From a virus (lineage: Duplodnaviria; Caudoviricetes): a stretch of DNA of 64,000 nucleotides. Shown in pieces: positions 30,811 to 30,947 of the stretch. Under the pieces are notes generated by a model. The model made no database searches. It saw nothing but the letters and a program-made list of their open reading frames with translations, and was not told the origin of the DNA. The number at the start of each line of letters is the position of its first letter. Positions within the stretch are counted from its first letter, which is position 1. The stretch covers positions 160,001-224,000 of IMG/VR virus record IMGVR_UViG_3300031555_003626; one strand, written 5' to 3'. The translations under genes were made by a program, and so were the position numbers.

Positions 30811-30947
30811 TGAGCTATGGTGTAAAGGTAGCACAACAGACTTTCGTGGATTAGCATAAGTAATGCACTACATGGTTATAATAGTTCAAGTCTATTATTC
30901 ACGGCCAGACTCTGTTGGTTTTGGTTCGAATCCAGATAGCTCAGCCA
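30811..30947 (+). tRNA. tRNA-Gln(UUG) interrupted by nested mini-tRNA 30845..30907
   Basis: Removal restores ACAGA-CTTTGAC-TCTGT; U1:A72, G73, CCA. Confidence 0.85.

Follow-up and report, generated by a model that had tools for sequence, protein, structure and literature searches.

A tRNA-shaped insert in the anticodon loop of a large-phage tRNA-Gln(UUG) gene and its possible removal by tRNA processing and RNA repair

How can a tRNA gene work when a second, tRNA-shaped sequence interrupts its anticodon? The question is raised by the tRNA-Gln(UUG) gene of a large caudovirus, in which a 63-nt insert lies between positions 35 and 36. The virus is represented by a single contig of 233,329 bp (IMG/VR record IMGVR_UViG_3300031555_003626; 37% G+C) that CheckV rates as complete and that uses the standard genetic code. 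The window analysed here is the 64,000-nt stretch from position 160001 to 224000 of this contig, and coordinates without a contig label refer to the window. On balance, the 63-nt element is probably a tRNA-shaped intron of a working tRNA-Gln(UUG) that is cut out by RNase P and a 3′ endonuclease, the exons being sealed by an RNA ligase of the T4 Rnl1 type.

Anatomy and setting of the split gene

The gene and its insert have the following parts.

30811–30947, + strand: split tRNA-Gln(UUG) gene, 137 nt, insert between U35 and G36
30811–30844, + strand: 5′ exon, 34 nt (acceptor UGAGCUA, D arm, stem strand ACAGA, then C32 U33 U34 U35)
30845–30907, + strand: 63-nt tRNA-shaped insert (putative intron), from its own +1 to its own CCA
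30845–30851, + strand: insert acceptor, 5′ strand CGTGGAT, 7/7 paired with 30897–30903
30852–30853, + strand: insert UA (U8 A9)
30854–30866, + strand: insert D arm, GCAT-AAGTA-ATGC
30867–30879, + strand: 13-nt linker in place of the anticodon arm and variable loop
30880–30896, + strand: insert T arm, AATAG-TTCAAGT-CTATT, 5 bp with a 7-nt loop
30897–30903, + strand: insert acceptor, 3′ strand ATTCACG
30904, + strand: insert discriminator, G
30905–30907, + strand: insert CCA
30908–30947, + strand: 3′ exon, 40 nt

The 5′ exon, aligned to uninterrupted Gln genes, ends in CUUU, and the 3′ exon consists of G36 A37 C38, UCUGU, the T arm, UAGCUCA, G73 and an encoded CCA. All 16 stem pairs of the insert form (16/16). 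A sequence-only reading of this DNA had placed the insert between positions 35 and 36 and had described its acceptor, its GCAT/ATGC D stem, its T arm and the terminal G and CCA; the boundaries and every element agree base for base with the present analysis. The resemblance to tRNA is more than chance, as the insert alone scores 35.7 bits with the Rfam tRNA model RF00005 (gathering score 29, E 8.7e-7) and is aligned to model positions 1–71 with the anticodon arm deleted. The same reading took the anticodon arm to be almost erased, and indeed, instead of the 5-bp stem and 7-nt anticodon loop of a decoding tRNA, the insert has an unpaired linker that replaces both the anticodon and variable arms. 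The whole split gene scores 50.3 bits with the Rfam tRNA model, and a covariance model built from four other inserts recovers the 63-nt insert at 34.3 bits. The U8 A9 dinucleotide and the D arm together make up a 15-mer, TAGCATAAGTAATGC, that is common to other inserts and to free-standing tRNA-like genes.

The minimum free energy of the insert is -12.5 kcal/mol (z -1.49) and that of its cloverleaf -9.5 kcal/mol, while the nested cloverleaf of the 137-nt precursor has -26.1 kcal/mol against a minimum of -32.5 kcal/mol. Nearest-neighbour folding misfolds even the spliced tRNA. Because thermodynamic folding does not single out the cloverleaf, the support for it is comparative.

Exact deletion of the 63 nt yields a canonical 74-nt tRNA-Gln(UUG), which ARAGORN calls without its intron mode. 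Applied to the split gene, the intron mode misses the boundary by one base and returns Glu(UUC). Thirty uninterrupted tRNA-Gln genes of metagenome contigs contain, letter for letter, the 24-mer across the junction made in silico. The Gln identity is settled by this match together with the U1-A72 pair, G73 and the ARAGORN call on the joined exons. An empty site is also available: in the syntenic contig L158, the Gln gene lacks exactly these 63 nt, and it is preceded by the same upstream gene (specifying a protein of 668 aa, 77% nucleotide identity) and followed by the same downstream flank.

The + strand between 29000 and 37000 is a dense cluster of tRNA and non-coding RNA genes that includes 13 ordinary tRNA genes, a GOLLD RNA and several YrlA-like RNAs. 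No close relative of the cluster was found among GenBank phages, where only single tRNAs matched. Words of the 2.2-kb stretch around the insert are shared by 24 sequencing runs, among them six feces-metagenome runs, possibly the source samples, that contain 85–91% of the sampled words, and three RNA runs that share small fractions of them. A search of prokaryotes (one genome per species) for the D-arm 15-mer together with the T loop returned four matches and no clue to the host, three being chance occurrences in coding DNA and one lying on a phage-looking 3.4-kb MAG fragment. Two further tRNA genes of the cluster, Leu(UAA) and Lys(UUU), are split as well, and the three split genes are the sole Gln, Lys and Leu(UAA) genes of the 233-kb genome. 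In the codon usage of the phage (CAA 43%, AAA 51%, UUA 19%), no strong demand signal for these tRNAs was found.

Several other elements of the cluster were recorded. The 668-aa ORF (26937–28943) belongs to no Pfam family and lies directly upstream of the tRNA/ncRNA array in 13/13 related viral contigs, at 47–79% identity. It is followed by three tandem YrlA-like (Y RNA-like) matches (29040–29460; 43, 24 and 32 bits, below the gathering score), each of which holds a circularly permuted tRNA-like module of T arm, acceptor and D arm. Between tRNA-Trp and tRNA-Ile (30360–30470) there are two T-arm-like hairpins, GAGG-UUCGAUU-CCUC and CCGG-UUCAAGU-CCGG, flanked by GGGCAUG...CGUGCAC, and this segment may be a composite tRNA-like RNA. 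A tRNA-Tyr(GUA)-like gene (31861–32023) has an intact anticodon loop and, closed by GCUUCA/UGAAGC, a variable arm about 90 nt long; its copy in contig L003 (16044–16206) has GCUUUA/UAAAGC, a compensatory change. ARAGORN miscalls this gene as an Asn gene with an intron, and an ordinary tRNA-Tyr is found at 33678–33763. Sub-threshold matches to RAGATH-33 (32042–32152, 43.6 bits against a gathering score of 120) and to tRNA-Sec (32959–33042, 30.9 bits against 47) fall in a spacer-rich part of the cluster. The GOLLD RNA (35494–36007, 156.3 bits, gathering score 150) carries an insertion with tRNA-like sequence in its variable middle. Inside the tRNA array there is also a free-standing HNH endonuclease ORF of 158 aa (34071–34547, PHROG E 2.6e-22), the 3′ end of which overlaps tRNA-Leu(UAG). 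Its product could mobilise adjacent elements at the DNA level.

A family of tRNA-shaped inserts

The inserts of the other two split genes and a free-standing gene of similar build lie close to the tRNA-Gln gene.

29586–29740, + strand: split tRNA-Leu(UAA), with a 68-nt CCA-ended insert (29621–29688) between positions 34 and 35
31447–31645, + strand: split tRNA-Lys(UUU), with a 123-nt CCA-ended insert (31482–31604) between positions 35 and 36
32265–32337, + strand: free-standing 73-nt tRNA-like gene, acceptor GGGUAUU/AAUAUCC, D stem GCAU/AUGC

The stems of the 63-nt insert are unlike those of the other two inserts in sequence and yet remain paired, as the sequence-only reading had noted. The free-standing gene has the T arm GAUAG-UUCGACU-CUAUC and an ACCA end, is without a 7-nt anticodon loop, and is possibly a paralogue or source of the inserts.

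Related loci were collected in two ways. Thirteen related IMG/VR loci, retrieved via the neighbouring 668-aa protein, hold CCA-ended inserts in tRNA genes for Leu(UAA), Lys(UUU), Thr(UGU), Glu(UUC) and Asp(GUC). When the D-arm 15-mer UAGCAUAAGUAAUGC was used as a query, unrelated viral contigs came up in which genes for Asn(GUU), Leu(CAA) and Gln(UUG) are split by inserts; free-standing tRNA-like genes were found as well, and some of these have a terminator of their own. The resulting census comprises 19 inserts in eight tRNA species, located at positions 34/35, 35/36 or 36/37. They were aligned by covariance model and position-anchored counting, since MAFFT misaligned the 5′ ends of inserts of unequal length.

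All 19 inserts span exactly from their own +1 to their own NCCA or N73. Over the 12 acceptor and T-stem pairs, 97.8% of positions are paired, as against 62.8% on average and 70.6% at most in 1000 column shuffles; there are 37 extra pair types (shuffle maximum 31), and double substitutions are seen at 11 of the 12 pair positions. The anticodon arm is replaced by anything from a 7-nt linker to about 70 nt, in the relatives either a bare linker or short hairpins with 3–6-nt loops, and none of the inserts has a 7-nt anticodon loop. The conserved bases are those of the tRNA D and T arms, and at the junctions only the CCA is conserved. This pattern of diverse but paired sequences upholds the proposal of the sequence-only reading that selection acts on the acceptor/D/T shape rather than on decoding.

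The closest relative of the 63-nt insert is a 55-nt insert at the same 35/36 site of a tRNA-Gln(UUG) gene on contig L156. The D arms of the two are identical and the T arms agree at 16 of 17 positions. The acceptor of the L156 insert, CAGGCAA/UUGCCUG, is wholly different, is paired at 7/7 positions, and is not followed by CCA. Inserts are present in some relatives and absent from others; in L003, for instance, the Gln and Lys genes are uninterrupted. The inserts are probably a mobile intron family that resides in the anticodon loops of large-phage tRNA genes.

If an insert is taken to begin at its own +1 and to end with its own CCA, the ARAGORN calls are mended each time. The split Lys(UUU) gene of the window is miscalled as Gln, and among the relatives a 'His' gene becomes Asp and a 'Thr' gene becomes Lys. 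The corrected Asp body presumably matches the E. coli tRNA-Asp sequence, and the corrected Lys aligns with the Lys genes of relatives.

Some of the longer inserts share further sequence. A tRNA-Gln(UUG) gene of an unrelated 215-kb contig (L124, 4625–4821) contains a 122-nt homologue of the window's 123-nt Lys insert, with the common blocks AAAUGGGUUAU and AAGUUCUGUU-N-GUAGG, and thus one insert subfamily occupies different tRNA species. Inserts of about 119 nt are present in the tRNA-Thr(UGU) genes of two unrelated contigs (L004, 12098–12216; L156, 4867–5056), and these share with a free-standing tRNA-like gene (L012, 17453–17550) the inner motif CCGAAUC-N-CAGG-N-AAAAGAC. The motif suggests a conserved cargo domain that replaces the anticodon arm.

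Free-standing genes such as this one bear on whether the inserts are removed at all. An insert might be a landed copy of a free-standing tRNA-like gene, the small RNA being the product and the outer tRNA either disabled or a mere scaffold. Genes of the same build do exist at 32265–32337, in L018, L067/L154 and L113 and at the L012 locus, and some have a terminator. The outer tRNAs, however, do not look disabled. Exact deletion of the insert gave a canonical tRNA with a perfect cloverleaf and a 7-nt loop in 15/15 genes tested. Moreover, the two strands of the outer anticodon stems, which the insert separates, covary: in split Leu(UAA) genes of four lineages, pair 27-43 is G-C, C-G, U-A or A-U, and these lineages are well diverged, with neighbouring 668-aa proteins that are only 51–79% identical. 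The covariation and the sole-copy status of the Gln, Lys and Leu(UAA) genes are hard to square with dead genes, and removal of the insert and joining of the exons are therefore implied. By this comparison, the outer tRNA-Gln gene appears to have been kept working while split. Insertion without splicing is accordingly regarded as improbable, somewhat more so than the removal by another nuclease that is considered below.

A small catalytic RNA is another candidate for the intron. Group I introns occupy the anticodon loops of bacterial and phage tRNA genes, including tRNA-Leu(UAA) at 34/35, and the insert could be a reduced group I intron or a self-cleaving ribozyme of the hammerhead, twister or HDV-like type. 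A more distant relative (L010, 5095–5365) does have a tRNA-Lys(UUU) gene with a 183-nt intron of another, group I-like kind, which is without CCA or tRNA arms, is preceded by U at the 5′ site and has G as its last base. The tRNA-shaped inserts are of a different nature. An insert of 52–63 nt is far below the size of any group I core, and the conserved bases are accounted for by the tRNA arms and CCA. Rfam searches of 29000–38000 (E ≤ 1) and of the insert (E ≤ 10) found no ribozyme, the insert being matched as tRNA only. A group I intron was rejected for the 63-nt insert in view of its length, its terminal A and the lack of an Rfam intron or ribozyme match, and a ribozyme of whatever type is considered very improbable.

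Proposed excision and resealing

The preferred reading, a tRNA-shaped intron removed by tRNA end-processing enzymes, may be pictured as follows. The insert would fold within the precursor as a tRNA domain of its own. Host RNase P would then cut 5′ of the insert +1, leaving a 3′-OH on U35 of the 5′ exon, and a tRNA 3′-end endonuclease would cut after the insert CCA or, in CCA-less relatives, after the discriminator. The outer cloverleaf would hold both exons together until the phage ligase of the T4 Rnl1 type seals them in the anticodon loop, with a kinase healing the ends if needed. After cuts by RNase P and RNase Z, the anticodon loop would carry a 3′-OH and a 5′-phosphate, the pair of ends that T4 RNA ligase 1 joins. 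Wherever the inner domain sits, from 34/35 to 36/37, its two ends are the splice sites, and so it is the intron that would be recognised and not the exons. Sites set by the shape of the intron would likewise allow one family to occupy 34/35, 35/36 and 36/37.

RNase P cuts 5′ of the +1 of any acceptor/T-arm stack with a 3′ NCCA, and U at -1 is the preferred context of the bacterial enzyme. Position -1 is a pyrimidine in 19/19 inserts and U in 16 of them. We infer RNase P as the cutter from the tRNA shape and from the start of every insert exactly at its own +1.

At the 3′ end, the inserts come in two versions. CCA-ended inserts are found in phages whose own tRNA genes encode CCA (13/13, 21/21 and 24/25 genes), and CCA-less inserts in phages with CCA-less tRNA genes (0/8, 1/18, 0/8 and 0/2), where the exon begins directly after the discriminator. 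L156 is an exception, with CCA-ended inserts among tRNA genes that are without CCA. Overall, the 3′ end of an insert tends to follow the tRNA gene convention of its own phage. RNase Z cuts CCA-less precursors right after the discriminator. Most RNase Z enzymes are inhibited by CCA, and in CCA-encoding bacteria tRNA 3′ maturation is largely exonucleolytic, which could not free a 3′ exon; for these reasons the 3′ cut is the weakest step of the model. An endonucleolytic cut just after an encoded CCA has been documented for the Thermotoga RNase Z and for RNase E (PMC7479834).

The phage encodes enzymes that could carry out the last step. A protein of 396 aa, encoded at contig positions 131804–132994, is a homologue of T4 RNA ligase 1 (PF09511, 49 bits; PDB 2C5U, E 4e-14, residues 32–327), and a gene for an Rnl2-like ligase adjoins that of an RlaP nucleotidyltransferase. 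A candidate for the healing enzyme is encoded close to the tRNA genes.

25786–26712, + strand: polynucleotide-kinase-like ORF, 308 aa, just upstream of the tRNA/ncRNA cluster

This ORF matches Pnkp/Pnkp1 and the PHROG polynucleotide kinase family, and with the Rnl1-family ligase it gives the phage both components of a T4-type repair module. RtcB, EndA (PF01974) and an RNase Z-type metallo-beta-lactamase were not found in the phage genome. Across genomes, the ligases do not follow the inserts. The nearly complete, insert-bearing genomes G001, G006 and G010 have PF09414 only and no PF09511, whereas Rnl1 (PF09511) is present in the relatives G002–G004, in which no insert was detected; PF09414 is itself unspecific and matches 8 of 14 control genomes. 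The presence of a ligase is compatible with the splicing model but does not discriminate insert-bearing from insert-free genomes.

The repair genes also fit a variant in which the exons are spliced after cleavage by some nuclease other than RNase P and RNase Z, the ends being healed by a kinase/phosphatase and sealed by Rnl1, as in T4 after PrrC. In its favour are the Pnkp-like kinase gene that immediately precedes the cluster (only 5′-OH ends call for a kinase, and RNase P and RNase Z make none), the full heal-and-seal set of Rnl1 plus the Rnl2-like ligase beside RlaP, and the difficulty of giving the cut after CCA to a standard enzyme. On the other hand, a candidate nuclease was not found, and many large phages have RNA-repair genes without split tRNAs. 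The ends of the inserts are those of mature tRNAs, including the switch from A76 to N73 in the CCA-less versions, and general tRNA end-processing predicts both. Such a separate nuclease is an unlikely but still credible cutter.

The anticodon-loop location would also suit an intron of the archaeal/eukaryal type, in which a splicing endonuclease acts on a bulge-helix-bulge. Against this, the search of the phage for the tRNA-intron endonuclease domain was negative, the site varies from 34/35 to 36/37 as set by the insert ends rather than being fixed at 37/38, and the phage has features of a bacterial type (sigma-70-like promoters, GOLLD and YrlA-like RNAs). An intron of this type is hardly credible here.

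Excision of a tRNA-shaped intron by RNase P and a 3′ endonuclease, followed by resealing by an Rnl1-type ligase, would amount to a third route of tRNA splicing in bacteria and phages. The existence of such a route is plausible, though we would stop short of calling it probable. To our knowledge, protein-dependent tRNA splicing is established in no bacterium or bacterial virus, and known bacterial tRNA introns self-splice.

Relation to known systems and significance

Introns of this appearance have been seen before. The tRNA genes of Lak megaphages contain 'enigmatic' introns, one of which 'itself may encode a tRNA' (Devoto et al. 2019, PMC6784885, Fig. 4, Table S6), and there too the boundary given by software is off by one base (PMC6784885). 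A 2026 survey of jumbo phages states that such introns 'could encode another tRNA' (PMC13037316). A mechanism is proposed in neither study (PMC6784885, PMC13037316), and a search of the literature for a described mechanism of tRNA-shaped phage introns found none. Like the Lak introns, the present insert interrupts the anticodon loop in a tRNA gene carried by a large gut phage, is tRNA-like, and is present or absent between related genomes. It differs from the Lak example (Tyr), in which the tRNA-like part does not begin at the first intron base, and its carrier is a 233-kb standard-code phage, unlike the Lak megaphages. The 63-nt insert is thus a genuine member of a known, mechanistically unexplained class of large-phage tRNA introns. 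Worked out here beyond the earlier papers are the rule that inserts run from +1 to the 3′ end, the covariation, the variable site, the versions with and without CCA and the context of repair enzymes. The tRNA-Gln case adds the relative with an empty site, the homologue with a fully changed yet paired acceptor, the 3′-end tendency and a 137-nt substrate.

Group I introns splice themselves by means of a conserved ribozyme core, measure about 200 nt or more, and are known from position 34/35 of cyanobacterial and plastid tRNA-Leu(UAA). The tRNA-shaped inserts resemble them in occupying the same genes and loop positions, in being mobile and sporadic and in the U that usually precedes the 5′ site. 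The 63-nt insert differs in its length, in the absence of an Rfam ribozyme signature and in that its conserved parts are tRNA arms. The MALAT1 mascRNA, mitochondrial 'tRNA punctuation' and the t-elements of plant mitochondria are tRNA-like signals at which RNase P and RNase Z cut. In these, as in the inserts, a non-decoding tRNA-shaped module marks both cleavage sites. Their flanks are simply released, however, while the flanks of the present insert would need to be re-ligated, which makes the process splicing.

In T4, Pnkp and Rnl1 repair tRNA-Lys that has been cut in the anticodon loop by PrrC. The present phage likewise encodes an Rnl1 homologue and a kinase, and the sealing of an anticodon-loop nick is likewise proposed. 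The nick in T4 is damage by the host, whereas here it would be a programmed step of maturation; the role of the ligase is one that we infer. Archaeal and eukaryal tRNA introns (EndA/TSEN with RtcB or Trl1) are similar in that they are short, lie in the anticodon loop, and are removed and ligated by proteins, as is proposed here. The phage system differs from them in having no EndA or RtcB and an unfixed site, and in that the whole tRNA-shaped intron would be recognised rather than bulge-helix-bulge junctions.

The existence of tRNA-shaped introns of this kind would explain why software misses or miscalls such genes (Gln as Glu, Lys as Gln, and Asp of relatives as His). The 137-nt precursor of tRNA-Gln(UUG) is compact and short enough for a direct in vitro test. 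The tRNAs that host the family (Lys, Gln, Glu, Asn, Asp and Leu/Thr with a modified wobble base) are known as targets of anticodon nucleases, which may connect the arrangement with the arms race over tRNA cleavage. The excised 63-mer could also act in its own right, perhaps as a decoy. If the model is correct, maturation of the Gln, Lys and Leu(UAA) tRNAs of the phage depends on its own repair enzymes, and Rnl1 and Pnkp of phages would have a constitutive job beyond the repair of damage. With introns whose splice sites are set by their shape, RNase P, a 3′ endonuclease and a repair ligase would together constitute a spliceosome-free splicing machine.
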